From a virus, in IMG/VR virus record IMGVR_UViG_3300045988_118516, positions 1-38,567 of that record: a DNA stretch of 38,567 nt; one strand, written 5' to 3'. A model generated the notes under the pieces. The model was not told the DNA's origin. It searched no databases and worked only from the letters and a program-made list of their open reading frames with translations. The position numbers and the translations under genes are program-made. Of the stretch, positions 3,534 to 33,824 are shown piece by piece (positions within the stretch are counted from its first letter, which is position 1; each line of letters begins with the position of its first letter).

Positions 3534-3552
3534 TTATTATATCATCCTTTCA

Positions 3553-7358: not shown

Positions 7359-7362
7359 AAAA

Positions 7363-14037: not shown

Positions 14038-15849
14038 TTAAAACGGTAGTTTTGTGTCCTCTTTTTTCGCCGTATCCAGATTAAATGGAAACTGACAAAT
14101 GCCTTTCTCCCCGACCTGATACAACCGCTTTGACTTCCGGCTATGCCGCAGCTGGATGCGGTCGTCCTCTTGCAATAAAATACCCGTTGCGCGGTTTTTT
14201 TTCACTGCAAGTAGCGTCCGTGTGATTTTTTCGCCGTCGTCTTTGGTGGTGGCATCTCTATCTAACATGATAACGGTATCTGACAGGTTTCCGATGTTAC
14301 CAGAGCCGGATATCTCGTCAACGTCTAACTCCTTAGATTTGGTCTTTTTCGGGTGGGCGACCAGCAGGATAACAATTTGCAGCTTACTTGCCAGCAGTTT
14401 CAGCTTTTTTACAAATTTGCTTTGCTCTATGTACATATCCGTCCCCTCGGCAATTGCCGTCATGAGGTTATCTACCAGCACAAACCGCACGTCATACGCT
14501 CTGGCAGCCGCTTCAATTTCCGGAATGATGTCCATGTTGTCTTTCTCTGCCAATGCAAGGTTGTCAACGATAAACAGGCGGTGGCGATACCAGTCCGCAA
14601 GCTGCTGCTCTTGCTCTTTTTCAAGATAAAACCCGGCAGAATCGGTATAAACACGCTCTTTGATTGCCTTTTCGCCGGCAATCTGGAAATCCAGCCATCG
14701 TTTTACTTCGTAATCGGCTAACTCGCCGGAATAAATCAGCACGTTCCAGTCCTGCCAGAGGGCAGCGACTGCAAACATACTGGCAAGTGTGCTCTTTCCC
14801 GTGCCGCATTTGCCAGTCAGGGCAATCAGCTGCCCCTCGTAAAACCCGCCAATAGTCTGGTCAAGCTTTGGCAGCATGGTTTTAAAGTGTGGCACGTCGT
14901 TGAGAGCAACGCCTTGCACGTTTGCCATGTCCTTGATGGTCGGCGGCTGAAACAGCTCTGCTTGCTCCACTGCCCGGTGCAGTGCTTGCTCCCCGTAAGC
15001 CTGCAGTATGTCGTTTGCGTCTTTTTCCAGCAGATAATCTCCCGGACGGACAGAACGCACTTTACACTTTGGAAACAACTCCCGAACCTCTTTTACAAGC
15101 GTTATGCTGCCCCGCTCGTGGTCACCAAATACCACGATGGTGTCAAACTGCTCCACAAAGTCCCTGCAGTGCTCCACCCATGTAAATCCTCTTGCTCCAG
15201 TCGGCACGCTGACAGCGTTGGGAATTCCTGCACTTGCAAGGGATAAGCTGTCAATCTGTCCCTCTGTGATGACCAGTGTCTTGCTTTTGGATGGGTCGCA
15301 GTGATCCATCCCGAACAAAATCGGTCTGCATCCGCTCTCGCACCACTCTTTTGCCTTGTGTTTTGTCTTGTCGTAGTCCATCAGGCGATATTTGACAAAC
15401 TCCAGCTTGTTGTAACGGTTGCCGCTCGTGTCTGTAACGGGTCGATAAAACGGAAAAATCAGCTGGTTGGAATCGCCTTTTGTGGTCGTGATGCCATAAG
15501 CCCGTGTGACTTCTTTTTTGATGCCTCTGCGAAACAAGTATTGCTCTGCTGGTGTACTGGTAATCAACCGTACCTGTGGAAGGCTCTTAAACGTCCCTGT
15601 GTCGTCCGCTTGCAGCTGGAAGTCAAAGTCCCTTGCCAACTCCACAAAATGCCCCTGACGGCCGCAGGACGCCCGTGGGCAGCGATATGCACCGGATTCC
15701 ATGTTGATGCTAAACGACCAGCGGTCACCACGGCTGGAGTGGCAGTAGGGGCACTCTTTAAACTGTAACTCATTGCCGTGTACTCTGGTTTCAATGCCTT
15801 GCCGCTCGGCAAAGGCTAGCAGGTCGGATTGTTGTAATTGATACCGCAT
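14038..15849 (-). CDS. Bifunctional primase-helicase (zinc finger + TOPRIM + DnaB-like helicase; T7 gp4/Twinkle-like), 603 aa
   Basis: Motifs CPYCHSS...RCPRASC, LVITEGQIDSLSL (Toprim) and GKCGTGKST (Walker A). ATG at 15849 has GAGGGAGTG upstream. Confidence 0.85.
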   Translation of the reverse strand: MRYQLQQSDLLAFAERQGIETRVHGNELQFKECPYCHSSRGDRWSFSINMESGAYRCPRASCGRQGHFVELARDFDFQLQADDTGTFKSLPQVRLITSTPAEQYLFRRGIKKEVTRAYGITTTKGDSNQLIFPFYRPVTDTSGNRYNKLEFVKYRLMDYDKTKHKAKEWCESGCRPILFGMDHCDPSKSKTLVITEGQIDSLSLASAGIPNAVSVPTGARGFTWVEHCRDFVEQFDTIVVFGDHERGSITLVKEVRELFPKCKVRSVRPGDYLLEKDANDILQAYGEQALHRAVEQAELFQPPTIKDMANVQGVALNDVPHFKTMLPKLDQTIGGFYEGQLIALTGKCGTGKSTLASMFAVAALWQDWNVLIYSGELADYEVKRWLDFQIAGEKAIKERVYTDSAGFYLEKEQEQQLADWYRHRLFIVDNLALAEKDNMDIIPEIEAAARAYDVRFVLVDNLMTAIAEGTDMYIEQSKFVKKLKLLASKLQIVILLVAHPKKTKSKELDVDEISGSGNIGNLSDTVIMLDRDATTKDDGEKITRTLLAVKKNRATGILLQEDDRIQLRHSRKSKRLYQVGEKGICQFPFNLDTAKKEDTKLPF

Positions 15850-15864
15850 CGTTCTCACTCCCTC

Positions 15865-16419
15865 TTATACTAAATCAAAATCGACCTCATCCCACGGCAC
15901 AACATCTCCCTCTTTTGAGATAGCCGGTGGTGCTGCCCCATTGGGGGCAGTGCCGTCCGGCGGCTTATTTGTTACTGGTACTGTAACAGTACCAGTAACA
16001 GTATCAGTAACAGTTACAGCTTGTTTTGCTTGTTTTGGTTGTTTTAAACAAGCATTGCTTGTTTTTGCTTGTTTTGGTTGTTTTAAACAAGCATTGCTTG
16101 TTTTTGCTTGTTTTGGTTGTTTTTCTGTTGCCCCGCCCTTTTCCTTTGCAGCGTTTCGGTTGCCTTTTGGAGCCCCGCCTTTTTTCCCTGCTTCTACGCG
16201 TTTCCGTTTTGCCTCTTCCCATTTCTCTGCACACTCGTCAATCTGGGATGTAAAAACGCTGAACAGCACCTGCAACACCAAGTCGTCAGATTCTAAACGC
16301 TCTCCGGTATCTGCATACCGGAGAATCGCCTTGAATAGGACACCACACTGTGCATCGGATAGCATGTCAATCTCTTTTTTGCGGTCAGTAAACAGAACGA
16401 ATGATTTTTTGGTTGCCAT
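15865..16419 (-). CDS. Putative replisome organizer / origin-associated protein with repeat-encoded low-complexity C-terminus, 184 aa
   Basis: The N-terminus FVLFTDRKKEIDMLSDAQCGVLFKAILRYADTGE resembles phage replisome-organizer N-domains. The gene contains the 39-bp repeats (KQPKQAKTSNACL x2.4). Confidence 0.5.
   Translation of the reverse strand: MATKKSFVLFTDRKKEIDMLSDAQCGVLFKAILRYADTGERLESDDLVLQVLFSVFTSQIDECAEKWEEAKRKRVEAGKKGGAPKGNRNAAKEKGGATEKQPKQAKTSNACLKQPKQAKTSNACLKQPKQAKQAVTVTDTVTGTVTVPVTNKPPDGTAPNGAAPPAISKEGDVVPWDEVDFDLV
15971..15999. repeat. Inverted repeat with 11-bp arms (gttactggtac-N7-gtaccagtaac)
   Basis: Read directly from the sequence. It lies inside the 15865..16419 gene next to the 39-bp repeats. 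Confidence 0.85.
16028..16123. repeat. About 2.4 tandem copies of a 39-bp unit, each containing the 19-bp perfect palindrome AAACAAGCATTGCTTGTTT; candidate lytic origin
   Basis: gcttgttttggttgttttaaacaagcattgcttgttttt starts at 16028 and 16067, with a partial copy at 16106. Confidence 0.85.
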
Positions 16420-19914: not shown

Positions 19915-20157
19915 TTATCCCTCCTCTTTCTGGGTTGCTGCGATGTCCTTGGTCTGTTGCAGGCTCTTGAGTAAAACAAAAGCCAGATTTAAGGCGGTTT
20001 CAAATGTTGCTGTGACGTCCTTAGTATGCTGTAGGCTCTTGAGTAAAACAAAAGCCAGATTTAAGACGGTTTCAAAGACCACCTTATCGCTCGGACTGAG
20101 TTCCCGGTACACCTGCGTTATCTGCTGCTGTTCCGTTGCTCTGTTTGCGTTGCTCAT
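19915..20157 (-). CDS. Hypothetical protein containing an internal 24-aa duplication, 80 aa
   Basis: ATG at 20157 follows AAGGGGGTGA. Contains (V/A)LNLAFVLLKSLQ(H/Q)TKD twice. Confidence 0.55.
   Translation of the reverse strand: MSNANRATEQQQITQVYRELSPSDKVVFETVLNLAFVLLKSLQHTKDVTATFETALNLAFVLLKSLQQTKDIAATQKEEG
19942..20085. repeat. In-frame tandem duplication, 2 x 72 bp
   Basis: aggctcttgagtaaaacaaaagccagatttaag occurs at 19961 and at 20033. Confidence 0.9.
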
Positions 20158-20171
20158 AAAATCACCCCCTT

Positions 20172-20846
20172 TCAAGCCTGTCCCAAAAACAGATTGATGA
20201 AGTAAACCTGTCCTTTTCCGGTAACTTTCGGCGTTTTGCTGATGGTTGTGTATCCAGTATGTACCACGCTGGTTTCTTTGATTTCCATCAAACCTTGTTC
20301 CATACTTCGCTGCGTCGGCAGATTGTATTCAGAACCTTTTCGCTTAATCAACTTTGCAAGCTCGCCAATCAGGATACTGCTGCTCGATGCGGTCACGCTG
20401 TCGGCAAATAAAACCTTTGGCTTGTCCTGTTCCATCTGCTTCTGTAGGTCGCTGACGGTCGTTTCCAGCTGCTTCATCTTTACATTTGACAGCTGCAAGG
20501 CTCTCGCCATGATTGCTTCGGGGCTGTTCCACTTCTCTTCCACGCCAATGAAATACTGCCGCCAGAACTTCCCCCTTTCCGTCCGCTGAAGCATACAGAG
20601 TTCCTTTGCCATGGGAATGGTAAGCTGGTGGTCGGTGATTTCTCTTGAAACGTTACGATTTCCTTCAATTTGAACTCGGACATTTTTGTCCAAGTTGAAA
20701 TCAACGCCTTCAGAAAAACCGTACTCTGCCATTCTGTCAAACCACTTTTTATAAGGGGTTTCTACTTCCAGAGCTTCCCACAGCTCCCGACCTGATACGG
20801 TCGGGCGGTCTACGTTCTCGTAGTTGACTTTGATTAGTTCATTCAT
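20172..20846 (-). CDS. ant: Antirepressor (AntA/ORF6N N-domain plus KilA-C-type C-domain), 224 aa
   Basis: TVSGRELWEALEVETPYKKWFDRMAEYGFSEGVDF is the AntA/ORF6N signature. ATG at 20846 follows GGAAAGGAAG. Confidence 0.7.
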   Translation of the reverse strand: MNELIKVNYENVDRPTVSGRELWEALEVETPYKKWFDRMAEYGFSEGVDFNLDKNVRVQIEGNRNVSREITDHQLTIPMAKELCMLQRTERGKFWRQYFIGVEEKWNSPEAIMARALQLSNVKMKQLETTVSDLQKQMEQDKPKVLFADSVTASSSSILIGELAKLIKRKGSEYNLPTQRSMEQGLMEIKETSVVHTGYTTISKTPKVTGKGQVYFINLFLGQA

Positions 20847-20987
20847 CACGATACTTCCTTTCCGGCTTTCGCCGTGCAATTTACCCTTACGGGCTGGGAT
20901 GCCGCTGATACGCTCAACGGCTCAGAAGCGTGTTAGTATAAAGGCAAAGAATGAGGTCTTGCCAATGGCTACGATGCTGCCACACCG

Positions 20988-22193: not shown

Positions 22194-22216
22194 TTAAGCA
22201 AAAGGAGGTGATAAAC

Positions 22217-22672
22217 ATGAACGAAAAGTACAACAACCTTAAAAAGATACGGAAAGAACGGGGACTTACAGTTAAAGAGGTCGTTGAAGGGGCAGGCATA
22301 CCAATGAGGACTTATCAAAACTATGAGTACATGGAACGAGAAATCGGTGCTGGTACGTTGCAAAAACTCGCCGACTTTTACGGTGTAACCACAGACTACT
22401 TACTTGGCAGAGAACCAGCCCCTGACCCGTTTGCAGACCTGAATCTCAACAAGGAATCAGAAGAGGATGTCATTAACAAGTACATGAGCCTGCCACCAAA
22501 TATCCGTGCTTGCCTGATGGATGTCTTGCTGCAGCTTGCTGACGCAGCAAAGCAGCGGCAAAACGCACCGTCTGAAGAAGATACGCAGTGCAGCAAATTG
22601 TCCGTATCGACCGCCCTCGGAACGATTGAGGACGAAATTGAAAAGATGGCTATGGCAAAAGGCGGCGTATAA
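22217..22672 (+). CDS. CI-like repressor, XRE-family HTH, 151 aa, no S24 peptidase domain
   Basis: LKKIRKERGLTVKEVVEGAGIPMRTYQNYEYMEREIGAGTLQKLADFYGVTTDYLLG is a canonical HTH_3 sequence. AAAGGAGGTG lies upstream of the ATG at 22217. The gene is divergent from the early operon. Confidence 0.8.
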   Translation: MNEKYNNLKKIRKERGLTVKEVVEGAGIPMRTYQNYEYMEREIGAGTLQKLADFYGVTTDYLLGREPAPDPFADLNLNKESEEDVINKYMSLPPNIRACLMDVLLQLADAAKQRQNAPSEEDTQCSKLSVSTALGTIEDEIEKMAMAKGGV

Positions 22673-22898: not shown

Positions 22899-22949
22899 AA
22901 AGTAAAAGAGGGTAAAACAATTTTACCCAGCGAAACAGGAGTGATTGAA

Positions 22950-23408
22950 ATGAAAACTTGCCCAAATTGCGGCGAAACGAACGGAGAAGCGAACGACAAG
23001 TGCTATAAGTGTGGTGCAGACTTGTCACAGATTTCCGGCGAAAAGCGATATTGCGAGTATTGCAAAGAGATTTACTCACCACGGACAAAAGAGTGTCCTA
23101 ACTGTGGTATGCCTACGATTGTGTACAATCCTGCTACAATGTCGCAGATACATAACACCGGAGGCGTTGAAGTGTGGATGTACGTCATCGCATTTTTAAT
23201 CCCGATTGTGGGGCTTGTCCTCGGATGCATCCAAGTCGGCAAAAACGACAAATCTGGAGGCAAAAAGCTGATTATCACCTCCATTGTGTCGTTTATACTG
23301 TATGTAATTGTCGTGTCTGCAATCTCCAGCAGCCGCGAAAAGCAAGCTGCTGATGAGTTGTCAAGCCTATATGATAGTTATAGCTACAGTTATGACATTG
23401 ATGACTAA
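22950..23408 (+). CDS. Double zinc-ribbon membrane protein, 152 aa
   Basis: CPNCG...CYKCG and CEYC...CPNCG motifs, followed by two hydrophobic helices (VWMYVIAFLIPIVGLVLGCI and LIITSIVSFILYVIVVSAI). The RBS is CAGGAGTG. Confidence 0.7.
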   Translation: MKTCPNCGETNGEANDKCYKCGADLSQISGEKRYCEYCKEIYSPRTKECPNCGMPTIVYNPATMSQIHNTGGVEVWMYVIAFLIPIVGLVLGCIQVGKNDKSGGKKLIITSIVSFILYVIVVSAISSSREKQAADELSSLYDSYSYSYDIDD

Positions 23409-23445: not shown

Positions 23446-23481
23446 CCCCCCAGAGGTCGAAACCTCTGAGGGGTGTTTTTT
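23446..23481. terminator. Bidirectional intrinsic terminator between the convergent Zn-ribbon and rep genes
   Basis: ccccccagaggt-cgaa-acctctgagggg, flanked by aaaaata on one side and tgtttttt on the other. Confidence 0.75.
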
Positions 23482-24538
23482 ATATTCCGTTATATGATAT
23501 CGGCTGATATGCATCGCTTTCGAGCATTTTTAAAAAATACTTAAACCTGTTTTTTATCGGCTTTTTGCACATTATGACATTGAGTGCGGCATATTTTTCA
23601 CGGAGATAAAACTGCTTACCATACAACTCACTTTTTGTTGCCTGGTCACACGGGATGTTTATCCGGACAAGTACACGGGCGATTTGCTCCATCTCAGCTT
23701 TGTTAAACTCATAATTACACCCCTCTGCGAGCGTGGCAAGCCGCTCAGAGCCGTAAGTGATTGCCCAATCAAATTCATCGCGTTCTTCAAAAAGTGCCTC
23801 TACGGGGCTGTCAGCGGCGTTCTGGGACGTTTTGAGTATAAATTGTATGCCGGATACTTTGCGGCCACGCCGCAGGGCTACATAATCAAAATCAATGTCG
23901 GTTTTTTGAGATAACTCTTTTTGACATTTTTTAAGCACCATTGTACTAAAACGCTTGTACTCGCTATACGTGTCCGCTGTGCAGCAAAGCATTTTTTTAA
24001 GGGCATCAAGTGGTATCGTCCACGACCCCCGAAAACGGTTGCTCTCCAGATACAAATACAAAATATAACTGTATCTTGATGTCAAATTGACTACATTTTT
24101 TAGACGGTATCTCAAATAACCTATGCTCTCAATGTTAAAGATGTACTCCATTGCCTCCGGAGAGCATGCAAGTTTGATTGTCCAAAGCCCATCATCCCCC
24201 CGTGTGCACTCAGCACACGAAAAGAGGACTATTTTAGTAAATTTGTTTGGTTTGTCGGGGTCTTGGATTGTAACGACCTTAAAAAGATTGTCAATCCGGT
24301 TGGATAAATCCTTGTTTTTTATCTGCGTAACGCCCAGCAGTGACTCCAACTCACCTTTATCAAACGTCACGCTCCGCTCCTCTGGTTTGCGGCTGTCGAT
24401 TTTTGATAGGTACGCATCGAGTATTTTAAACTCTGCGAGCGTCATTTTTGTCTCAGATAATGATTGCAGGGGATTTGATTTTTGTACTAAAAATTTGCAA
24501 TCACCCGAAAATTGTGGTAGCGCTGTCCTTTTTGGCAT
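23480..24538 (-). CDS. repB: Plasmid-type replication initiator, RepB/Rep_3 family, 352 aa
   Basis: LVQKSNPLQSLSETKMTLAEFKILDAYLSKI...VTFDKGELESLLGV is the characteristic Rep_3 N-terminal pattern. GAGGTG lies upstream of the ATG at 24538. Iterons sit directly upstream. Confidence 0.75.
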   Translation of the reverse strand: MPKRTALPQFSGDCKFLVQKSNPLQSLSETKMTLAEFKILDAYLSKIDSRKPEERSVTFDKGELESLLGVTQIKNKDLSNRIDNLFKVVTIQDPDKPNKFTKIVLFSCAECTRGDDGLWTIKLACSPEAMEYIFNIESIGYLRYRLKNVVNLTSRYSYILYLYLESNRFRGSWTIPLDALKKMLCCTADTYSEYKRFSTMVLKKCQKELSQKTDIDFDYVALRRGRKVSGIQFILKTSQNAADSPVEALFEERDEFDWAITYGSERLATLAEGCNYEFNKAEMEQIARVLVRINIPCDQATKSELYGKQFYLREKYAALNVIMCKKPIKNRFKYFLKMLESDAYQPISYNGI

Positions 24539-24556
24539 GATTATCACCTCATGCTT

Positions 24557-24585
24557 ATTTTAACATAAAGACGTGGTTTTGTCAA
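24557..24585 (-). promoter_or_regulatory. rep promoter TTGACA-17-TAAAAT
   Basis: Minus sense reads TTGACAaaaccacgtctttatgtTAAAAT. It abuts the iteron array. Confidence 0.65.
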
Positions 24586-24592
24586 TAGGTAT

Positions 24593-24689
24593 ACGTCCCT
24601 TTACGGAAAAGAGTATGTCCTTTGGCGGAAAAGGATACGTCCCTTTACGGAAAAGAGTACGTCCCTTTACGGAAAAGAGTATGTCCCTA
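24593..24689. repeat. Iteron array: about 4.4 tandem 22-bp repeats (ACGTCCCTTTACGGAAAAGAGT)
   Basis: Units start at 24593, 24615 (diverged), 24637 and 24659, with a partial unit at 24681. Confidence 0.9.
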
Positions 24690-24731
24690 AACACCAAACC
24701 GCCCCGAAAATCCGGACTTTTTTACACCCCG

Positions 24732-24790
24732 TAATCAAGTAGATAATCAAGTTATAATCAAGTTATAATCAAGATGATTGATTGATTGAT
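24732..24790. repeat. AT-rich short-repeat block (ATAATCAAGTT x3, then TGAT x4); candidate DNA-unwinding element of the plasmid origin
   Basis: taatcaagt agataatcaagtt ataatcaagtt ataatcaag atgattgattgattgat. Confidence 0.7.
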
Positions 24791-24811: not shown

Positions 24812-26053
24812 TCACAATTTTGCATCTAGTGAAGCGACGTGCTTCAGAATCTGTTGCAGCGTGGATTCTTCGGTGTCCGGTTCAGGTGTTGGCTCTGGTT
24901 CTGGTTCATTCGGTTGCGTTACTTTTGTGAACCCGTTCAATCCAGCAGTTTTTATGATTGTCGGGTAATCGGTGTAACAGTAATCCATATCACACTCGCC
25001 AACAATACCAGGGATACTTTTTTGCCCAATAATGTCATACTCTGCGTTACCAGCTACGTTATACTGCCAAATGCCGTATGAATTTTGATACGTGCATTTA
25101 CTTGCGTACTGGGCACACCAGACCGTATAACGGCTTTTAATGCTATCTGACAGGTAATTGTCTAAGTAGTAGGTACTGCAATACAGACCGGCAAAATATC
25201 CAGCCTGTTCCAGCGTGTTCAAAAATGCATCTACTATTGCAGAGCAAGAAGCTTTGCCTAATGCAAATTGTTTTTCGTTCTCCAAATCCATATAAACCGG
25301 ATACTCAAACGATTTACCTTTAATGGTCTGCAAAAACACCTGTGCCTCACGTCTTGCCTCGTCTGCCGACATTGCGTAACTAAACCAGTACGCACCGCAG
25401 GGGATACTCAGACGCTTACAAGCGGCATAGTTACGGTTAAATTGTGTATCAACTTGGTTTGCCTCTTTGCCGTATCCAGCCCGTAAAATCGCAAAATCAA
25501 CCAGCCCGGACGCTTTTGCAGTGTCCCAGTCAATCTTGTTTTGACAGTATGACACATCGATGCCTTTTAAAATACTTGTTGTTTCGGTTGTCTTTTTGAT
25601 GCCAAAATACTTGTAAAAATCCTCTGTAACTGTGCCGTTCCCTTTGACCTCGTCACCGAGCCAACGGTATCCTGTGCGGACATCCAGATGCGTGTACTGG
25701 TAAGATGTCGTGATGTTAGCAATACCACCGAAACCTAAGTCTTGAGCCTTACAGCATACCGTTTTGCTGCTGATGGGCTGCCCGTCCTGCCCATAACAGC
25801 AGACATCCGCAGCAGTGCCTTTGGTATGCTGACCGCTGCTTGTGCCTCCAACCGTCTTGTCATGCTCTGGGCAGCGGTATCCACTTGTCACAATGATTTT
25901 GCTACAGTTAAGAGCAGTATAAAGCTGCTCTAACTTGTCTATTAGACCGCTGTCTATCAAAATATCGTGCAATTTACCGCACTGGCACTTAAACTCCTGC
26001 ACGTTAAAATGTGCTGACAGCTGGGTTTTGTCGTCAAATTGATACGTTGACAT
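24812..26053 (-). CDS. Bifunctional endolysin: N-terminal zinc peptidase (M15-type) plus GH25 muramidase, 413 aa
   Basis: SGYRCPEHDK...GQHTKGTAADV...YTHLDVR (H/D/H metal-site pattern) and GIDVSYCQNKIDWDTAKASGLVDFAILRAGYG (GH25). AAAGGAGTG lies upstream of the ATG at 26053. Confidence 0.85.
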   Translation of the reverse strand: MSTYQFDDKTQLSAHFNVQEFKCQCGKLHDILIDSGLIDKLEQLYTALNCSKIIVTSGYRCPEHDKTVGGTSSGQHTKGTAADVCCYGQDGQPISSKTVCCKAQDLGFGGIANITTSYQYTHLDVRTGYRWLGDEVKGNGTVTEDFYKYFGIKKTTETTSILKGIDVSYCQNKIDWDTAKASGLVDFAILRAGYGKEANQVDTQFNRNYAACKRLSIPCGAYWFSYAMSADEARREAQVFLQTIKGKSFEYPVYMDLENEKQFALGKASCSAIVDAFLNTLEQAGYFAGLYCSTYYLDNYLSDSIKSRYTVWCAQYASKCTYQNSYGIWQYNVAGNAEYDIIGQKSIPGIVGECDMDYCYTDYPTIIKTAGLNGFTKVTQPNEPEPEPTPEPDTEESTLQQILKHVASLDAKL

Positions 26054-26165
26054 GGTTAACACACTCCTTTTTATTCGATATTGGTTAAGATACACAAAAC
26101 AAATATATTATTTTTGTGCATCTATACAAATTCAAGAAAATATACGCCAAATTGGCATAAACCTA

Positions 26166-26194
26166 TTGACAAATATGCCAAATAGGTGTATACT
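26166..26194 (+). promoter_or_regulatory. Promoter TTGACA-17-TATACT
   Basis: TTGACAaatatgccaaataggtgTATACT. It is flanked by the inverted repeat CCTATT/AATAGG. Confidence 0.65.
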
Positions 26195-26248
26195 ATAATT
26201 ACAGCAAGGGCGAGAGCCCAAAAGAAAAGAAAACGGAGGAAATTTAAA

Positions 26249-27274
26249 ATGAACAACACGGAAAGAATCAACGAACTGCATGCAAAAATCAGACAGGAAC
26301 TCACCAACAAAGAAGCTTTGATTGATAGCAGAGAATACTTGGAATTTAAGGATGCTGACACAACAGAGGTTGAGGCAGAGCTTGCGGAAACAAGAGCCAA
26401 CATTAAGGCAATGCGGGAAGAACTCAGAGCCTTGCTGGACGCCGAATCTGCAGAAGAAAAAGAAAAAGAGTTGCAGGCAAAAATTAAACAGAAATTTGAG
26501 GCTAAGCAACCGCTACTCAGAGAGCAAGCACGCCTTTGTCTCAACAGCAAGGACACTGCAGAGGTCGACGGCAAAATTGCAGAAATAGAATCAAGCGTCA
26601 ACGAGATGCATTCTGAATTAAACGCTCTCCGGTGTGCAGAATTTGCAATCGAATGTGCAGAAAAATCAGAAGCCGATGATGAAGAAGAAAAAGATTTAGG
26701 CAAGAGAATCAAAAATCTGCAATTGCGGTTAAGAATTGCATACAGCCAGCGAGACCGCTATGTCTTTCACGGCTCAACATCAAAAGCAAAACAAGCTGAA
26801 ATTGAGGCTGACCTCACAAAAGGGGAAGAAGAAATTGCCATGATTAAAGCAAAGTTAAAATCCCTTGGTGCAGAGCCGGAAGAATGGAATGCACTTGACA
26901 TTTTTGATATTCCATCGTCGGATTTCGGAGCCGTTGCAGAAGAAGAGGTTAAAATTTACATTGACTTTGATGTATTTGCACAGCAGTACAACGCCGCAAA
27001 AAGTTGTGATAATAGCGACAAATTTATTATAAGACCGTGGGAAGACTGGATGAATCCTGCTGCAACACGTGCGTCAGTTGTTGATTTGCTGTCATATATA
27101 TACAACGTAAGCAAAAACGGATTTAACGAGATTGCTAAGCAGTACAAGTCCCTTAGAGAGCTGTCTGACAAGTTTAATATACCGTACAGCACCGTCCAAA
27201 AGTGGGGGGCGGGAAAAGCAACACCGCCGGAATACCTGTTGACGATGATGGCATATGTTACAATTATCGGGTAA
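26249..27274 (+). CDS. Coiled-coil protein with a C-terminal HTH, 341 aa
   Basis: ACGGAGGA RBS. A long charged heptad-like N-terminal part is followed by the C-terminus LRELSDKFNIPYSTVQKWGAGKATPPEYLLTMMAY (XRE-like HTH pattern). Confidence 0.75.
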   Translation: MNNTERINELHAKIRQELTNKEALIDSREYLEFKDADTTEVEAELAETRANIKAMREELRALLDAESAEEKEKELQAKIKQKFEAKQPLLREQARLCLNSKDTAEVDGKIAEIESSVNEMHSELNALRCAEFAIECAEKSEADDEEEKDLGKRIKNLQLRLRIAYSQRDRYVFHGSTSKAKQAEIEADLTKGEEEIAMIKAKLKSLGAEPEEWNALDIFDIPSSDFGAVAEEEVKIYIDFDVFAQQYNAAKSCDNSDKFIIRPWEDWMNPAATRASVVDLLSYIYNVSKNGFNEIAKQYKSLRELSDKFNIPYSTVQKWGAGKATPPEYLLTMMAYVTIIG

Positions 27275-27277
27275 CAG

Positions 27278-27289
27278 ATTTGTACAAAT
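27278..27289. promoter_or_regulatory. Perfect 12-bp palindrome ATTTGTACAAAT, 22 bp upstream of the next -35 element
   Basis: Read directly from the sequence. It shares TGTACAAAT with 22134-22142. Confidence 0.5.
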
Positions 27290-27311
27290 ACACAAAAACC
27301 GCCGAAAAGTA

Positions 27312-27339
27312 TTGACAAAGTGCATATAAGCGGTATAAT
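27312..27339 (+). promoter_or_regulatory. Promoter TTGACA-16-TATAAT
   Basis: TTGACAaagtgcatataagcggTATAAT. Confidence 0.65.
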
Positions 27340-27345
27340 AAAGGC

Positions 27346-27492
27346 ATAGCAAGACAACTTGCTTATGTCCTCCTTGCAAAAGGAGTGTTGGATTTAAATC
27401 ATTATTTTTAGTATGTGCTATAGGTAAGTAGCCGTTATGTCGCTACAAGCAAATGGCGTGTCGCTCCCCGTTGCAGGGGAGCGTGTCTTTTT
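27346..27492 (+). ncRNA. Candidate ~150-nt structured RNA or attenuator leader ending at an intrinsic terminator
   Basis: It lies between a consensus promoter and a strong terminator. Hairpins are cauagcaag/cuugcuuaug and cuccuu-GCAA-aaggag, then the terminator. There is no convincing ORF. Confidence 0.45.
27462..27492 (+). terminator. Intrinsic terminator inside the leader, upstream of the 74-aa ORF
   Basis: cgctcccc-gttgca-ggggagcg followed by tgtcttttt. Confidence 0.75.
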
Positions 27493-27518
27493 AAACCAAC
27501 AATACAGGAGGGCTAAAC

Positions 27519-27743
27519 ATGAGTAAAAAACCAACAAGAGTATTTTGGATTGTAAGGTATCGGCTATGGGGTGCGGACGGAGAATCATATATGTGGTTTG
27601 ACCACAAAGAAGACGCAGAAAAGTTTGCAGCCCGTGACTTTTACGACAAGCCATACCATAAAGTATATCCAAAAGAAGAGGGCGATTTACAAGCTATTCG
27701 GCTTAATGCTCTTGGTCTTTTAAATAACCCGTGGGGAGATTAA
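27519..27743 (+). CDS. Hypothetical protein, 74 aa
   Basis: CAGGAGGG RBS 7 nt upstream. The gene is followed by a terminator. The family is not recognised. Confidence 0.6.
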   Translation: MSKKPTRVFWIVRYRLWGADGESYMWFDHKEDAEKFAARDFYDKPYHKVYPKEEGDLQAIRLNALGLLNNPWGD

Positions 27744-27768: not shown

Positions 27769-27804
27769 CGCCCAGCAGTAATTTAAACTGCTGGGCGTTT
27801 TTTT
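27769..27804 (+). terminator. Intrinsic terminator ending the plus-strand island
   Basis: cgcccagcag-N9-ctgctgggcg followed by ttttttt. It overlaps the stop codon of the convergent methyltransferase gene. Confidence 0.8.
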
Positions 27805-28585
27805 ATTTTGATAATTCTTTTATAATTTCTTTTTCTCGGTCGCTGAGTTCAAAACGTTCCGCCCGTTCACGTTCCACCTGTTCTCGCTCTGCCCGTTCAC
27901 GTTCTGCGGCACACTGCTCGGAAATTAAAAATCCACCGCCAAATATCATCTTTTTCTTTTCTTTTTGGGTATCAAGCTGCGAGACAAAGAAAGATTCTGA
28001 TTTTGGCACTTTAAACTCAATCCCATATTTTGAGTAAGCGTTAATCCGTGCGGATTGTACAACATAATTTGGGTATGTGTATTTTGGCAACTGTTTTTTA
28101 GTCTCTTTCAGTATCGTTTCGGTCGCTTTTCTTACAACCTGATACAATCCCGGAGCGGTTCTGATTCGCAGATTCTGCGGCTCTAAATTGGTCAAAAATG
28201 ACGTTTTTACATTAGCACCGTTGTCATAAATGATGTTTGCATCCACAACCAACGCTGTACAATCTCTGTCTCTTATGCAATTAAACAAGGTTAAATTTGG
28301 AGCAAATAAGAAAAACGGAACATTTTTTGAAATGTAAAAATCTACAATTTTTGACAATATGCTAAATGGTGGATTGTCTACAACTATCGCAGTTTTGTCG
28401 TAGTCATAGTTTTCATAATCGCCGCCCGGATAAAAAGGGCGAACGAAATTGTCCCGATTAACCCCGTATTCACTTGCAACCCACTCTGCAACAGCATCGT
28501 AAACGACAGGCGGCGTATAGCAATCGTCTGTTGTTTTTTTCGGCTTAAATTTTTCTACAAATTCTTCGTATGTTTTGCTTTTCAT
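27803..28585 (-). CDS. Putative N6-adenine DNA methyltransferase (DNPPF motif), 260 aa
   Basis: DDCYTPP near the N-terminus and the catalytic-type motif VVDNPPFS. The start overlaps the holin stop as ATGA. Confidence 0.6.
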   Translation of the reverse strand: MKSKTYEEFVEKFKPKKTTDDCYTPPVVYDAVAEWVASEYGVNRDNFVRPFYPGGDYENYDYDKTAIVVDNPPFSILSKIVDFYISKNVPFFLFAPNLTLFNCIRDRDCTALVVDANIIYDNGANVKTSFLTNLEPQNLRIRTAPGLYQVVRKATETILKETKKQLPKYTYPNYVVQSARINAYSKYGIEFKVPKSESFFVSQLDTQKEKKKMIFGGGFLISEQCAAERERAEREQVERERAERFELSDREKEIIKELSK

Positions 28586-28998
28586 TTCTTTTCCTCTTTT
28601 TTTTGCAGCAAATCAATTGCTTTTCGGAGTGGTTCGGGGAACTGCACACCCATCAATCCCACGTTTTCGACCATTGAAATCAATTCATTTGCCATGAATG
28701 CGATACAAACACCATCTCTTACATAGGACGTATGCAGGACAGCGTCCACCTGCACGGCAACCACAACAAGTGCAAGCGTTGCAACCTTACGGCACAAACC
28801 TTTCCAGCCGACTTTAGATTGCAAGCCGCCTGATTCTGTTTTCGGGGACTTCTTAAAAATCCCTGCACAAGCTAACCCCATCAGGTAATCAATCGCCATA
28901 AAAATCAGCAAGGCTCTGATTGCTGCATCCCAGCCGCCAAACAACCCGGCAATCAGACCGCCGACTGTTCCGGCTGCTGCACAAATCCATTCTTTCAT
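28582..28998 (-). CDS. Holin (Phage_holin_4_1 / TcdE-like), 138 aa
   Basis: Multiple transmembrane segments: AAAGTVGGLIAGLFGGW, ALLIFMAIDYLMGLACAGIF and VATLALVVVAVQV. Confidence 0.8.
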   Translation of the reverse strand: MKEWICAAAGTVGGLIAGLFGGWDAAIRALLIFMAIDYLMGLACAGIFKKSPKTESGGLQSKVGWKGLCRKVATLALVVVAVQVDAVLHTSYVRDGVCIAFMANELISMVENVGLMGVQFPEPLRKAIDLLQKKEEKK

Positions 28999-29194: not shown

Positions 29195-30154
29195 TTATCC
29201 CTCCTTTGTAAGACCAGACACTGTCCAACCATTTGCAACCAATGTTGCAACAGCGTCATCGGATGCAGCCGTTCTTTTCATTCCGGTTGCTGTAAACGCG
29301 CCTGATTTGACGCCACTTGCGGCAAAATTTATCAAATTTGCGTCCATATCGGCTGACGTGATAGATGTTTTTGATACAGCAAATGTTTTTGGGTATTTTG
29401 TCCCAGAGTAAACGCCTGTAATATTTGAGCAGTAGCCTAAGTTAAGCACGCTTGCAATCTTACTGCCTAAATCAGATAAATCTCCTGTAATGTTTCGGCA
29501 GCCTTTTAAACTTAACCAATTTGTAATCTTACCGCCTAAATCAGACAAATCTCCTGTGATGTTTGGGCAGTTGTCTAAACTTAACCAATTTGCAATCTTA
29601 CCACCTAAATCAGACAAATCTCCTGTAATGTTTGGGCAGCTGCTTAAGTTTAGCGAGCTTGCAATCTTACCACCTAAATCAGACAAATCTCCTGTAATGT
29701 TTGGGCAGCTTTCTAAACTGAGCACGCTTGCAATCTTACCGCCTAAGTCTGATAAATCCATCTTGTTTGTAGTATCATTTTTGATTGTAAGGCTTTCGAT
29801 GGTATCACATTCCAGCGTAACCAGCCCATTGTCTGATTTTACGTCAAACGTGCAGTTACCCCCTTGCACTTGCTGCCCACCATACTGCCACACAACATTT
29901 GTACCAGTTGCGGTTGCAGTAAATGTACCTTTCCCATGCCGGAATTGGATGGTTTTCCGGTTTAGCTGTGCAATACTTGCATTCAGTGGTGCAATTGCGT
30001 TGCTGAGTGTTTCATCCGTCACGCTTCCACTTAGCCGTTCAACGATTCTTTCCAAAAATTCTTGCACTCGTGTGAGAGGCTTTGGCATCGGCACATCATC
30101 CCCGGCTGCTTTTGCTAAAAACTGCTCGTCACGTGTTAGCGGTTTTTTACTCAT
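29195..30154 (-). CDS. Tail fibre / receptor-binding protein with five leucine-rich-repeat-like 23-aa units, 319 aa
   Basis: The N-terminus KPLTRDEQFLAKAAGDDVPMPKPLTRVQEFLERI is a fibre-type N-terminal motif. It is followed by (DLSDLGGKIAxxLxLxxCPNITG) x5. GAGGAGG lies upstream of the ATG at 30154. Confidence 0.65.
   Translation of the reverse strand: MSKKPLTRDEQFLAKAAGDDVPMPKPLTRVQEFLERIVERLSGSVTDETLSNAIAPLNASIAQLNRKTIQFRHGKGTFTATATGTNVVWQYGGQQVQGGNCTFDVKSDNGLVTLECDTIESLTIKNDTTNKMDLSDLGGKIASVLSLESCPNITGDLSDLGGKIASSLNLSSCPNITGDLSDLGGKIANWLSLDNCPNITGDLSDLGGKITNWLSLKGCRNITGDLSDLGSKIASVLNLGYCSNITGVYSGTKYPKTFAVSKTSITSADMDANLINFAASGVKSGAFTATGMKRTAASDDAVATLVANGWTVSGLTKEG
29415..29759. repeat. Five tandem 69-bp repeats encoding the LRR-like units
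   Basis: cctgtaat/cctgtgat recurs at 29415, 29484, 29553, 29622 and 29691. Confidence 0.9.
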
Positions 30155-30332
30155 TGTCCGACGCCTCCTCTGGTACATAGCTGTCAATTGCGTCATTAAT
30201 TTCCGACAAATCGGATTCCGTGAGTACGCCTTTTTCCTGCCACCCGGCAGCATTTAAAATGATTTGATAATTTGCCATTTTCCCGATTGCGTCCAAAAAG
30301 CCTTTTTTTACAAAATCTCTCAAACTAAACAT
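30147..30332 (-). CDS. Small tail-fibre-associated protein (XkdX-like position), 61 aa
   Basis: Tightly packed between the two fibre genes. The family assignment is weak. Confidence 0.5.
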   Translation of the reverse strand: MFSLRDFVKKGFLDAIGKMANYQIILNAAGWQEKGVLTESDLSEINDAIDSYVPEEASDNE

Positions 30333-32278
30333 TATACATTGCCCCCTGTTGATAAAATTGCGGTTGTAGCGGCCGGCTGCGGTAAAACTTGCTGCCCATT
30401 TACAAATACCATGCCATTATTGGCATTCGTGTAAGGGAAATTACTTTCGTTACTCTGTGTAATCCGAACCATACTATTTGCCCCAGAATAAATGCCTTTT
30501 GTAGTACTATTGGTACAGCTGTAAATTTTTGCGTCACCTTGTCCGGTTACATAAACAGCATACTGTGCATTGCCTTTAAATTCCGTACCAGAACAGCAAA
30601 TGTTCGATATATCAGAGACACCAACTGCATTTTTAGAGTTGGCATTCACCACACAATCAGAAATCCGAACCGTTCCATTATACTGTGCAAGGATTGCGGT
30701 TGTGGATGTGTTTGCAGTATCGCTGTCGGTGTTGTCAATGGTGACTTTGGATAGATGCAAAAATCCATTTTCACAGACAAAATTCCCTTGAATGGTTGTT
30801 GTCGCTGCGGCATTGCCATAAATCCGAACATCTCGACCAAGCAGGGTTAATGTTTTGTCTGGAATGGGATAAGTTCCAGCTGCCAGATAAATCACGGCTT
30901 TTTTTGCGTACTGTGTGAACTGTAAAGCCCCGCTGAGTGTCTGCATGGCTTTTGCTGCGGTGCTGCCATTTTGTGCGTCTGAACCTGCAGCGGCATTAAC
31001 GTAAACTATTTTAGTGCTGCAAGCATCATCAAAATTGGAATGCAGTACAGTCAACTCGCCAATGACATTTTGTAAAGCTTGAATGTGCTGCAAATCGGCT
31101 GGCGAAAGGCTGTTTAAAACTGCCATGTTGTTGTGAGAATGATGTGTGTTTTTGATTACGTTCCATTTTTTAGCGTCAATATCATCAAGTACGCTCTTGT
31201 TATCGTGCGTATGTGCAGAGGCCTTTAGCGTATCCACATCCGGCGACAAATCCAGTACAAACAGCCCATCCGTTACAATATCCAGTGCATTGTGAGATAC
31301 GGTGCTGATAGACGGCAATATCTGCCACGTTTGCTTGCCATATACAGTTACCAGTTTGGCGGTGCAATACATTGCATGTGCATTGCCATCCCATCCGGGT
31401 GTATAATCACCCCACAGTGTAGCCTCTGCGTTTGTGCCGTTTTTGACGGACGCTGTGGTTGTGCCGTTTTTGTCAGTGATTGTGATTGTTGCCCCGGTAT
31501 CTGTTTCAGTGACGGTTGCTGTAGGAGAGTAACCGTCTGTACCGTTTTTCCCGTCAACCCCGTTTGTTCCGTCTTTTCCGTTTACGCCGTCCTTGCCGGG
31601 TGTTCCGGCGTCGCCTTTTTCTCCTTTTTCGCCACGTTCTCCCTTTTCACCGGGTGTTCCAGGCTCGCCCTGGTCACCTTTTTCACCTTTTGCTCCGGTC
31701 TTTCCTTGCTTTCCAGGGTCACCTTTTTCCCCAGTTTCTCCCTTGTCGCCTTTATCTCCCTTTGCAGGCTGCTCGGAATCCTGATAAACACCCGTTGCAG
31801 CGTCGTACAACCACCACGTGCCGTTCTGGATAATCGGAGCTTTCGCAATCAATTGCTCTGCTTGTGAGAGGATGGACTGCATCTCACGCAACGCCTTGTC
31901 AATCGCATCAATTCCGCCCTTGTATTGCTCCAAGATGGAATTGCGGACGACCATCGGGGTCATCTCATACTTAATGACAACCGTATCATCCTTTTGACCA
32001 ACAATTTCCGGCAGAAGTTCGCCGGGAACTGCCGTAAAATCCTCGGTAATTGCCCACGTCAGAATGATTTGGTTTTCAGTCGTTTCTTTTTCAAGGTTCT
32101 GCATGACAAGTCCACCGCCACTGTTGACGGCTCGTAGCGTAAACAGGCAATCAGATAAATCAGTCTGGTGGTAGTACCGGTCAATGGCAATTTGGATTTT
32201 ATCGGCGTTTTTTTCGCCGGCACTGAGCAGATGCTTGATGTTTGCCGTGTCGATGTATTTTTGATTTGCTGTTAGCAT
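30332..32278 (-). CDS. Tail fibre with a collagen-like stalk and a C-terminal parallel beta-helix (depolymerase-like) domain, 648 aa
   Basis: 25 G-X-Y triplets. The C-terminal part has repetitive G/N/T-rich segments (IQGNFVCENG..., VNANSKNAVGV..., GNAQYAVYVTG...). AAGGGAGA lies upstream of the ATG at 32278. Confidence 0.7.
   Translation of the reverse strand: MLTANQKYIDTANIKHLLSAGEKNADKIQIAIDRYYHQTDLSDCLFTLRAVNSGGGLVMQNLEKETTENQIILTWAITEDFTAVPGELLPEIVGQKDDTVVIKYEMTPMVVRNSILEQYKGGIDAIDKALREMQSILSQAEQLIAKAPIIQNGTWWLYDAATGVYQDSEQPAKGDKGDKGETGEKGDPGKQGKTGAKGEKGDQGEPGTPGEKGERGEKGEKGDAGTPGKDGVNGKDGTNGVDGKNGTDGYSPTATVTETDTGATITITDKNGTTTASVKNGTNAEATLWGDYTPGWDGNAHAMYCTAKLVTVYGKQTWQILPSISTVSHNALDIVTDGLFVLDLSPDVDTLKASAHTHDNKSVLDDIDAKKWNVIKNTHHSHNNMAVLNSLSPADLQHIQALQNVIGELTVLHSNFDDACSTKIVYVNAAAGSDAQNGSTAAKAMQTLSGALQFTQYAKKAVIYLAAGTYPIPDKTLTLLGRDVRIYGNAAATTTIQGNFVCENGFLHLSKVTIDNTDSDTANTSTTAILAQYNGTVRISDCVVNANSKNAVGVSDISNICCSGTEFKGNAQYAVYVTGQGDAKIYSCTNSTTKGIYSGANSMVRITQSNESNFPYTNANNGMVFVNGQQVLPQPAATTAILSTGGNV
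31532..31759. repeat. Collagen-like G-X-Y x25 coding repeat
   Basis: GDKGDKGETGEKGDPGKQGKTGAKGEKGDQGEPGTPGEKGERGEKGEKGDAGTPGKDGVNGKDGTNGVDGKNGTDG. Confidence 0.9.
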
Positions 32279-32291
32279 GGTATCATCTCCC

Positions 32292-33824
32292 TTACAAGTT
32301 ATTGATAGCATCCCAGAGGGCATTGATTGCGTTTTTAAATTCTTCGTTTTCAACTTTGTTATCTTCTAAATTTTGTATATCTGATACATTCTTGTCAGCA
32401 TAATTCCAAGCTTCGTCTGCTTTCGCTAAAGCAATTTTTTTAGCACTTGCTGCCACAATGTCCGCATGACGTTTCGATGCATTTTCGGAATTAAATGCCA
32501 ACGACCGCTTTGCAGCCTGTGCCAGCACTCTGGTGTCCTTCCCGGTGCAGGAAAACTCCCATCCGCCACGAAACTTCCAGGTCATGTTTGTAATGGTGCT
32601 TTCCGCCCATTTTCCAGGCTGATATTCGATTTCAATTCGCTGCCCCAACTTGGGGAAGTGGTCAATGTCATCAAATTTCAGATAGCATTTTAATTGAAAC
32701 GGTTTCAGCAACACATTATGAAACAGATAATTTGCTGCTGCTTCCACAATCGGATATTCGTTTTTGTCGTTTGTGTCCGGAAAGTCTTCTTGATAATTCA
32801 AAACCGTTTCCATTCTTCTTCCATCAAAAAAGCAATTGCTGGACAGGTCGATTTCCGCATTTCCCAGCATTGGCTTGTATTCCCTTGCATTTGTCCATCC
32901 AGTATCATCATAGGTTTTAAAATAGACCTTTTGAATATAGATGTTATACGATGCCACATCACAGCTATCTCTTGCAATGGAAGAAAACGGAACACGTATT
33001 TTGTCTTTAAAAAAGCCAAATGGGACAAGAGAAAAAGGTACTTGTGAATCATTGTTCTGATACTGGTCATTTCGCATACAAACAAAGGAACAAGCCGGCT
33101 TTGCAAGGGCAGAGATATAATCAATCGCACTGTATCGGGTATTTCTGGATTCTCCCTCTTCTGATTTTCTCATCAGTGTATAACCGCTGTAGGAATTTCC
33201 CAGTTTTGGATTATCATTCGGGATAGAATTGATATGTTCATAAGCAAGTGGCTTTTCTGCAATCATATTTTGCAGAATGTCATTCGTCCATGTGACAATA
33301 TCCGTTACAATTTCATGCAGAGGATAAACACCACCGTCACCGCCGCCCTCATAACCTTCCAGTTTATCCCTCAGTTTTTTGGATACTTCGCTTTCATCGT
33401 CATCAACTTTTCCAGAACCGGACGAAATGGAATTGTTATTTAGCCATACCAAGGCATCCGATGCCCGAAGCGTGTACAGCGTTTTTTTACGGGATACAGA
33501 TGTCACCCAGAACATTCCACGGAAAATCCAATCTGACGGCTTAGGCTCTTTTTGATAGCAGCTGTACAGAATGATTTTTGCACCATACAAGTTATATGCA
33601 TTGATGCCGTCTTGCTCTAAGTGCAGCTGAATGGATAGTTCTGCCGGGCGGACACTGCCAAGGGAAAAGGTGCTGCTGTCACAGGCAGAGGATTTGATGG
33701 AACAGCTATTCCGGATAATATCAGAATCGGTAAAAGCAATGTCCGTTGTATATTCGGCATAATCACCATTATCCAGATAGCAGGGAACAGAGAGAATGCC
33801 CTTTACATGCTCGTAAATCACCAT
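32292..33824 (-). CDS. Tail-associated protein (Tal / prophage tail endopeptidase-type baseplate protein), 510 aa
   Basis: Follows Dit. The size and position are typical, and the RBS is AGAGGAGGTG. Confidence 0.65.
   Translation of the reverse strand: MVIYEHVKGILSVPCYLDNGDYAEYTTDIAFTDSDIIRNSCSIKSSACDSSTFSLGSVRPAELSIQLHLEQDGINAYNLYGAKIILYSCYQKEPKPSDWIFRGMFWVTSVSRKKTLYTLRASDALVWLNNNSISSGSGKVDDDESEVSKKLRDKLEGYEGGGDGGVYPLHEIVTDIVTWTNDILQNMIAEKPLAYEHINSIPNDNPKLGNSYSGYTLMRKSEEGESRNTRYSAIDYISALAKPACSFVCMRNDQYQNNDSQVPFSLVPFGFFKDKIRVPFSSIARDSCDVASYNIYIQKVYFKTYDDTGWTNAREYKPMLGNAEIDLSSNCFFDGRRMETVLNYQEDFPDTNDKNEYPIVEAAANYLFHNVLLKPFQLKCYLKFDDIDHFPKLGQRIEIEYQPGKWAESTITNMTWKFRGGWEFSCTGKDTRVLAQAAKRSLAFNSENASKRHADIVAASAKKIALAKADEAWNYADKNVSDIQNLEDNKVENEEFKNAINALWDAINNL

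Follow-up and report, generated by a model that had tools for sequence, protein, structure and literature searches.

The DNA considered here is the virus record IMGVR_UViG_3300045988_118516 of IMG/VR, positions 1 to 38,567, and this whole 38,567-nucleotide stretch is referred to below as the window. As read from a 99-bp exact direct repeat at both ends of the 38.6-kb sequence, the window is a circular siphovirus assembly, and it carries between its endolysin and repressor genes a gene, rep, for a Rep_3-family initiator of 352 amino acids (aa), together with an upstream array of 22-bp iterons. The sequence of this locus and of its relatives indicates that, in this temperate siphovirus, the slot of the integrase is filled by a theta-type iteron replicon which is complete and functional, and for which autonomous replication is predicted. 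With fair confidence, the unit is held to work as a plasmid-type replicon and most likely to keep the prophage in an episomal state. Phage-plasmids have been well described as a class (PMC7969092, PMC10879196, PMC11652158) and have been reported to be common among gut phages (10.1101/2025.02.07.636470); the present phage is a new member of this known class.

The integrase slot in related phages

The strongest argument that the replicon serves prophage maintenance is that Rep and integrases alternate at one slot. The endolysin gene, which forms the upstream edge of this slot, was used as the anchor in a comparison of 55 related loci, the IMG/VR relatives having endolysins 62-94% identical to that of the window. 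The slot after the endolysin contains Rep in eight IMG/VR contigs (24-47 kb), a tyrosine integrase in L017 and L034-L039, and a large serine recombinase (498 aa) in L020, L023, L027, L042 and L051. In the eight Rep contigs and in one 9.6-kb fragment the Rep is 82-93% identical and lies between endolysin and repressor, as in the window. Tyrosine and serine integrases are absent from every Rep-carrying locus examined. The integrase-type relatives L020 and L042 have a fibre, holin and endolysin 64-97% identical to those of the window, and homologues of the repressor and antirepressor follow the integrase in those relatives that extend far enough. Judged from this gene order, the Rep and integrase cassettes are alternatives at one position.

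The slot sometimes also holds cargo (Fic, Abi_2, D12 methylase, AAA_21); in L072-L074 a gene for a D12-class adenine methyltransferase stands between the endolysin and the Rep origin, so that the slot accepts cargo too. In L022, L025, L026, L028, L031 and L052 only the final 27 codons of the serine recombinase (89-93% identical) were found beside the endolysin, and these remnants look like prophage boundaries or truncated integrases. The remnant in L022 is followed by a bacterial MatE gene whose protein clusters are labelled Dorea or Gemmiger.

An identical Rep (P0035) occurs with two early modules, containing a primase-helicase in L072 and RecT/ERCC4/SSB in L073, and a 94%-identical Rep goes with an ERF/ERCC4/SSB early module in L089. 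The Rep cassette thus accompanies three unlike early modules, which indicates that it belongs with the repressor region and not with one lytic replication module. This observation bears on an alternative in which the Rep/iteron unit is a lytic or early theta-mode phage origin, comparable to lambda O and its iterons, while lysogeny is kept in some other way or is an unstable carrier state. Such an origin would fit the presence of a Rep_3-like 'replication initiation protein' in cultured phages (PHROG 4402), the co-orientation of rep with the late operon, with no terminator detected between endolysin and origin, and the fact that the RecT/ERF relatives have no other recognised initiator in the available part of the module. 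However, the window has an early replication module of its own (primase-helicase, SNF2 helicase, an SSB-like protein and DUF6291 with an internal 39-bp repeat), and rep is located outside the early operon, beside the repressor, in the slot that holds the integrase in relatives. Furthermore, integrase-type relatives such as L020 have the late genes in common but no Rep, the identical Rep cassette goes with unrelated early modules, and the nearest non-phage relatives of Rep are plasmid Reps and not phage initiators. A purely lytic or early origin is considered unlikely.

The Rep protein and the origin

A first-pass annotation, made from the letters of the window alone, had described a 352-aa ORF (open reading frame) of Rep_3 type with its own TTGACA-17-TAAAAT promoter, about 4.4 tandem 22-bp iterons and an AT-rich block of 11-bp repeats and (TGAT)n, the whole insulated by a bidirectional terminator. 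Each of these elements was recovered by the searches reported here, with the promoter recognised as a consensus match; their positions are collected in Table 1. Rep matches the Pfam families Rep3_N (the first winged-helix domain, WH1; 7.3e-21, residues 18-164) and Rep3_C (the second, WH2; 3.5e-15, residues 177-233), both above the gathering cut-offs, and is matched by PHROG 4402, 'replication initiation protein', at 2.5e-27. WH1 spans residues ~34-132 and WH2 residues ~155-236, and these are followed by a helical C-terminal domain at ~258-344. An AlphaFold model made with 42 homologues, with a predicted local distance difference test score (pLDDT) of 71 overall and of 70-88 in WH1/WH2, matches 45 RepE chains (Foldseek E <= 1e-4, with 5e-7 for the match to RepE, probability 1.0, ~215 aligned columns), including RepE54-iteron complexes and dimeric RepE on its operator. 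According to this model, Rep has the tandem winged-helix fold of RepE, pi and RepA.

The C-terminal domain of ~95 aa (window 23507-23767) is conserved and helical, with a model pLDDT of 87.6, and is common to the phage and plasmid members of this Rep family. It gave no Pfam match even at E <= 10, and its confident model gave no fold match in the PDB; on these two results the idea that it is a DnaD/DnaB_2-like helicase-loader adaptor was dropped.

Upstream of rep, the promoter is followed by the 22-bp iterons, a spacer, the 11-bp AT-rich repeats and (TGAT)4. Both promoter hexamers are kept in all 14 origin alleles described below, and the spacer between them varies. One clear half-site only, an inverted partial iteron, is present at the rep promoter, and it co-varies with the iteron type; it is a candidate autorepression operator to which Rep would bind. 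A dif-like Xer site near the promoter, judged by eye, was rejected: the XerD-arm likeness of TTATGTTAAAA is accounted for by the extended -10 sequence, and no match is seen for the supposed XerC arm.

In the sense of rep, the iteron unit is CTCTTTTCCGTAAAGGGACGTA. Three copies are exact, the second (24615-24636) deviates from the unit and the last is incomplete. The unit occurs nowhere else in the window at three or fewer mismatches, and there were 0 matches in 100 shuffles. The conserved spacer with its palindrome may be a host-factor site; the plasmid pRGF00037 has a different dyad at this position. In the AT-rich block, the 11-mer repeats occupy 24732-24773 and (TGAT)4 occupies 24775-24790, and the A+T content is 78%, compared with 54% in the window as a whole. 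Taken by itself the 11-mer does not stand out statistically; all relatives have kept it, as has a plasmid whose Rep is 49% identical. The block is a candidate DNA-unwinding element. No DnaA box was recognised at the replicon. The terminator stands between the 3' end of rep on the minus strand and the convergent repressor/zinc-ribbon operon on the plus strand, and the three-gene order of repressor, zinc-ribbon gene and rep recurs in relatives.

Co-variation of Rep with its origin

Fourteen distinct origin alleles were found. The ribosome-binding site, the promoter hexamers, the spacer, four 11-mers and a (TCAA)n run are common to all 14. In every relative and also in small plasmids, arrays of 2.5-6.5 iterons hold this same position; between L074 and L075, contigs with identical Rep, the number of iterons differs (2.5 vs 3.5). 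The copies within one array change in concert, giving three iteron types: type A, that of the window, is GGGACGTAC...CCGTAAA, type B is AGG(T/A)CATAGAC...CCGCCAA and type C is ...TTTTTCAyGAA. Within the type-A array of the window, the second iteron resembles a type-B unit. The half-iteron at the promoter follows the array: type A has CCACGTCTTTA, and the other two types have TATGACATTA or TATGTCTTTA; the latter two forms go with alleles whose iterons have CATAG, not CGTAC.

The protein varies with its sites. Among the 104 variable Rep positions in the 14 alleles, only residues 198-200 split type A (STM) from types B and C (NDL), and these residues align with the RRR after PDF in RepE, a segment that we take to be the WH2 recognition helix. 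Over the 14 phage alleles and 18 plasmid relatives this triplet changes with the iteron core; among the plasmid relatives NDL goes with CATAGAC, NDR with CAATGAC, NDK with GCGAAGAC and NSE with TACGA(C/T)AC. This evidence, which is coherent and indirect, suggests that Rep reads these repeats and that its specificity is diversifying. In addition, rep has dN/dS values of 0.07-0.14 (pairwise, dS up to 1.5), by which measure the gene is under purifying selection. The replicon is regarded as functional because of this purifying selection, the concerted change of the iterons and the co-variation of half-iteron and Rep triplet.

Plasmid ancestry of the replicon

In PLSDB, 1110 plasmid records match Rep, as against three unannotated phage records, which are gut phage contigs; a search with the nucleotide sequence of the locus gave no match among cultured phages or those of GenBank. 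The best PLSDB matches are 3.5-4.5 kb plasmids of uncultured bacteria with 38-49% full-length identity, the first of which is pRGF00037 (HG796793; 3,924 bp, MOBV), whose Rep is 49% identical. Its origin consists of 4.5 22-bp iterons (TTTTCCACGAAAGGACATAGAC) preceded by 3.8 copies of a 12-bp repeat, CTTGATTTACTT, and both are visibly related to the repeats of the window. Near-perfect arrays of 22-bp period were also found upstream of rep in 13 of 18 more distant Rep relatives, mostly on contigs of 1-13 kb.

A division into two groups is seen among 1439 Rep homologues drawn from a collection of 5.8 billion proteins. In the clade at 82-100% identity (a statement that covers the listed clusters at >=82% identity), the longest contigs are phage-sized (~30-65 kb, many of 38-44 kb) wherever a long contig exists. 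A gap then extends to <=60% identity, below which the contigs are mostly 2-10 kb long and some of the proteins bear the name of plasmid replication initiators. The split between phage clade and plasmids is also seen in JGI metagenome contigs, and GTDB representative genomes contain only Rep relatives of <=55% identity, on small contigs of metagenome-assembled genomes (MAGs) of Ruminococcus, Oscillospiraceae and Lachnospiraceae. On these sequence comparisons, the replicon was most likely captured from a small cryptic plasmid family of gut Clostridia. The Rep family forms dozens of clusters at >=82% identity in human gut metagenomes, some with more than 100 member sequences, and the phage family looks common in the human gut.

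An ancestry among small mobilisable plasmids, and a compact, terminator-bounded cassette, would also be expected of a selfish passenger, that is, a small plasmid that entered the phage by recombination and is carried along in virions without serving the phage life cycle. However, only rep and the origin have been kept, while mob and other plasmid genes are not present, and dozens of diverged alleles have the unit at a single fixed position that is co-linear with the repressor operon. Every Rep-carrying genome examined is without an integrase and the Rep-less relatives have one, a complementary distribution rather than random carriage. A mere passenger is considered very unlikely.

Maintenance of the prophage

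The first-pass annotation had read the genome as a closed circle with a CI-like repressor and an antirepressor, no recombinase, a replicon outside the early module with its own primase-helicase and, as a caveat, no ParA/ParM genes and no toxin-antitoxin pair. The 99-bp terminal repeat agrees with the first of these statements, and the genes named in the second and fourth were identified by Pfam (Table 1). As to the recombinase, no match to Phage_integrase, Resolvase, Recombinase or rve, nor to any transposase family, was found by Pfam in the predicted genes of the window, the 38 other stop-to-stop ORFs of >=125 aa, taken over all six frames, were without any Pfam match, and tblastn of three integrases from relatives against the window gave no match; ORFs of less than ~85 aa, the possible size of an excisionase, are only partly covered by these recombinase scans. 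The caveat also held, no match to ParA, ParM, TubZ, ParB or a toxin-antitoxin system being found in the window with Pfam, PHROGs, NCBIfam and PADLOC; partition and addiction systems are typical of large phage-plasmids of low copy number, although they do not strictly define them. Rfam and tRNA scans of the window were empty, which leaves it without a known antisense or countertranscribed RNA (ct-RNA) and without a tRNA as a hint of attP.

The following course of events is proposed, and its steps of binding to DNA, firing of the origin, autorepression, episomal maintenance and control of copy number are all inferred. After infection the genome would circularise, the CI-like repressor would silence the early operon and Rep would then be made from its own promoter. 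Rep monomers would bind the four to five phased iterons via WH1 and WH2, with residues 198-200 in the WH2 helix reading the iteron core. Rep would then melt the adjacent AT-rich block of 11-mers and recruit the host replisome, so that the prophage is copied in the manner of a plasmid. By binding the inverted half-iteron within the promoter, Rep would repress its own synthesis, and copy number would be set by the number of iterons, probably also by handcuffing. Inheritance would most likely depend on a multicopy state with random segregation, as in the 3-5 kb source plasmids; this is the simplest stability model, because there are no partition genes in the phage or in the ancestral 3-5 kb plasmids. 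At induction by the antirepressor, the phage primase-helicase module would take over.

Contigs of the same phage are ~38.2-38.6 kb long and are broken at different points, as expected of a circle. These differing break points argue against fixed prophage ends, and they are no proof of an episome.

Several points weigh against episomal maintenance. No partition, multimer-resolution or toxin-antitoxin genes were found, which is unusual for a 38-kb plasmid, and circularly permuted virion DNA would give a circular assembly just as readily. The contig L074, of 64,754 bp, is a further such point. In the RecT/ERF lineages no separate replication initiator was identified in the portion of the module examined, and Rep might also serve lytic replication there. 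The promoter and operator are assigned from consensus and co-variation. Finally, one contig, L112 (ENA ERZ27266812 k113_14070, 51,309 bp), joins a Rep-carrying phage to bacterial-type DNA. The junction is directly upstream of the start codon of the fibre gene. In the non-phage part, positions 1-4381, there are genes for a GH9/CBM30/dockerin cellulase and for a HAD hydrolase with 85% identity to MAG proteins of Oscillospiraceae, and from 4381 on the contig is 99.7% identical to a 38.3-kb contig. Other phages have the alternative fibre N-terminus of L112 as well, preceded there by a normal tail gene. This contig may have arisen by integration, by insertion of 13 kb of cargo or by chimeric assembly. 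The clues to the host diverge here, the Dorea/Gemmiger labels of MatE coming from a distant integrase-type relative and the flank of L112 being Oscillospiraceae-like.

L112, in which bacterial-looking genes abut the tail-fibre gene of a Rep phage, lends support to a reading in which the prophage integrates without an integrase of its own, by homologous, IS-mediated or host-recombinase action, and the Rep unit is redundant or transiently used. An IS3-family transposase gene (rve, HTH_21) is also located between rep and the repressor in one relative (L061, 9179-10015; contig of L006, a 38.5-kb relative). However, L112 is a single case: for its Rep allele there are 20 indexed blocks whose longest contigs are 20-50 kb and one above 50 kb, and no other host junctions were found among Rep contigs of >=80% identity in IMG/VR, JGI, ENA and Logan. 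Moreover, the junction is inside the late operon, which is an implausible att position, and it coincides with a switch to an alternative fibre N-terminus, a pattern typical of chimeric assembly or of a recombinant remnant. Integration of this kind is judged very unlikely, and maintenance as an episome remains the preferred reading.

Other features of the phage genome

Among the predicted genes, Pfam identified TerL, an SPP1-type portal, a MuF-like protein, scaffold, a Gp15-like protein, a collagen-repeat fibre, holin, endolysin, an HTH repressor and AntA/ANT. By its gene content the window thus has a full phage set of packaging, head, tail, lysis and lysogeny-control functions, and is that of a temperate tailed phage. 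The phage is from the human gut. The early module contains, by Pfam, Gp157, AAA_24, an SSB-like protein, DUF6291, a Toprim-DnaB primase-helicase, an SNF2 helicase and VRR-NUC.

Table 1. Positions of the replicon elements and of other features in the window.
Feature	Position	Strand	Basis
rep, 352-aa Rep_3-family initiator	23480-24538	-	Pfam Rep3_N and Rep3_C
Codons 198-200 (Ser-Thr-Met), candidate iteron-specificity residues, predicted WH2 helix 194-212	23939-23947	-	Allele comparison
Ribosome-binding site GAGGTG, 6 nt before ATG	24545-24550	-	Sequence read; invariant in 14 alleles
Predicted rep promoter, TTGACA-17-TAAAAT, TG extension	24585-24557	-	11/12 consensus matches; consensus match only
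Inverted partial iteron CCACGTCTTTA, candidate Rep operator, between -35 and -10	24566-24576	-	11 nt; matches iteron reverse complement TACGTCCCTTTA
Iteron array, 4.4 x 22 bp direct repeats (two helical turns)	24592-24689	-	Tandem Repeats Finder (TRF) score 145, at 24592-24688
Conserved spacer, 42 bp, with palindrome AAAATCCGGACTTTT at ~24707-24720	24690-24731	.	Nearly invariant across iteron types A, B, C
AT-rich block, four 11-bp repeats (rep sense CTTGATTATAA) and (TGAT)4	24732-24790	.	TRF 11 bp x 3.7 and 4 bp x 4
Bidirectional intrinsic terminator	23446-23481	.	12-bp stem (23446-23473), 8 G-C pairs, 4-nt loop, T-runs on both strands
Endolysin, Peptidase_M15 and GH25, final gene of late operon	24812-26095	-	Glyco_hydro_25 1.5e-25, Peptidase_M15_3 2.9e-14
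CI-like HTH repressor	22208-22672	+	HTH_3 1.5e-12, RstR-like 5.9e-10
Zinc-ribbon membrane protein, after repressor, convergent with rep	22941-23408	+	Zn_ribbon/DZR/DUF4064 matches
Antirepressor AntA/ANT	20172-20879	-	Pfam
Primase-helicase, Toprim-DnaB, in early module	14038-15858	-	Pfam
MuF-like protein	4753-6006		Pfam
SPP1-type portal	6006-7532		Pfam
TerL	7363-8616		Pfam
Holin	28582-28998		Pfam
Collagen-repeat fibre	30332-32353		Pfam
Tape-measure gene, 1135 aa	34700-38107		Size, position, homology to PhageMin_Tail-annotated proteins of relatives

A 39-bp tandem repeat (2.7 copies, 98% matches) was found at 16019-16123, inside the DUF6291 gene of the early module (15865-16419, minus strand), where it encodes a repeated KQPKQAKTSNACL motif. 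The DUF6291 protein is only ~65% identical in relatives whose flanking genes are 93-99% identical. By analogy with lambda, whose ori lies inside gene O, this repeat may be a lytic origin. Two other repeats are located inside ORFs, one of 69 bp (five copies, 29415-29758) in the tail-region ORF 29195-30253 and one of 72 bp (two copies, 19934-20076) in the small early ORF 19915-20175. The early region also encodes a 402-aa PAPS-reductase-domain protein (10850-12058, minus strand) with weak similarity to SspD, BrxP and QueC, which may be a DNA-modification enzyme.

An opposite-strand cassette (26167-27743, plus strand) lies between the endolysin and a 260-aa gene (27803-28585) that comes after the holin. 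It has its own TTGACA-17-TATACT promoter and contains a 74-aa ORF and a gene for a 341-aa protein, a coiled coil whose C-terminal domain is phrog_25567. Several relatives have kept the 341-aa protein at 97-98%, and it has no match in Pfam, NCBIfam or PADLOC; L020 lacks both this protein and the 260-aa gene, its holin being followed directly by the endolysin. The 341-aa and 74-aa pair (26249-27743) was considered as a ParM/ParR-like partition system and was rejected, no actin-like or P-loop signal being present.

Discussion

Among the closest known systems are cryptic Rep_3 plasmids of small size from gut and rumen Clostridia, of the pRGF00037 type, which have the same order of AT-rich short repeats (CTTGATT...), a dyad spacer, 4.5 22-bp iterons, promoter and rep. 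These plasmids are 2-10 kb in size, some with a relaxase and none with phage genes, whereas the present replicon is a single cassette of a 38.6-kb phage; the phage Rep clade is a separate branch, with >=80% identity within it and <=60% to plasmids. Lactococcal Rep_3 theta plasmids of the pCI305 type also have this layout, with ~3.5 iterons of 22 bp and AT-rich short repeats. Direct iterons beside an AT-rich region are likewise found in RepE/mini-F, pi of R6K and RepA of pPS10, in which an inverted partial iteron lies over the rep promoter, comparable to the candidate operator here. However, RepE is only ~15% identical to Rep, which has an extra conserved C-terminal domain of 95 aa, a partition locus such as the sopABC of mini-F is not present, and the replicon here belongs to a phage genome.

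Conceptually, cluster A mycobacteriophages come closest. RedRock, Miko and Rachaly have extrachromosomal prophages in which the integration cassette is replaced in place by plasmid-maintenance functions, and in some cluster A phages a RepA-like initiator is necessary and sufficient for replication (PMC7157519). These prophages have parABS and 1-2 copies, no iterons were found near repA, and the origin is mostly RNA-based (PMC7157519). Both groups are temperate siphoviruses with a replication cassette in the integration position, but here no par system was found, iterons are clear, and the Rep family and host phylum are different. The Bacillus plasmid-prophage vB_BtS_B83 encodes a RepA-like gene, ParM with an adaptor and XerC/D-like recombinases (PMC6669507), and model phage-plasmids, among P1, N15 and SSU5-type elements, are expected to encode partition systems (PMC7969092). 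All of these combine a complete temperate phage with a plasmid initiator, and circular extrachromosomal maintenance has been proposed or shown for them; in contrast, the element described here has a replicon only. A literature search found no description of this Rep_3 phage family, which is weak evidence of absence. The distinctive features are a Rep_3 replicon with textbook iterons, the fact that no partition or resolution genes were found, and a small-plasmid ancestry in gut Clostridia.

A broader reading, to which slightly less than an even chance is given, is that a prevalent phage lineage of the human gut switches between chromosomal and plasmid lysogeny by swapping slot cassettes (tyrosine integrase, serine integrase or Rep_3 replicon), that in its plasmid form it is kept by a bare small-plasmid replicon, without genes for partition, resolution or addiction, and that specificity (incompatibility) types diversify by a three-residue change in the recognition helix of WH2 together with concerted change of iterons and operator. 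If this is true, diversified specificity types would let related plasmid-prophages coexist in one cell.

Most known phage-plasmids come from Enterobacteria, Bacillus, Clostridium and mycobacteria, and partition systems are usual in them. If a multicopy plasmid state without par genes is true of the present phages, lifestyle predictors that rely on integrases would miscall them as virulent, and the integrase and replicon versions of one backbone would be a natural experiment on integrated versus episomal prophages. The correspondence between Rep triplet and iteron core is a compact, testable specificity code for Rep_3 initiators and, if the cassette works as proposed, its 1.4 kb could provide a replicon for genetic tools in poorly tractable gut Clostridia.

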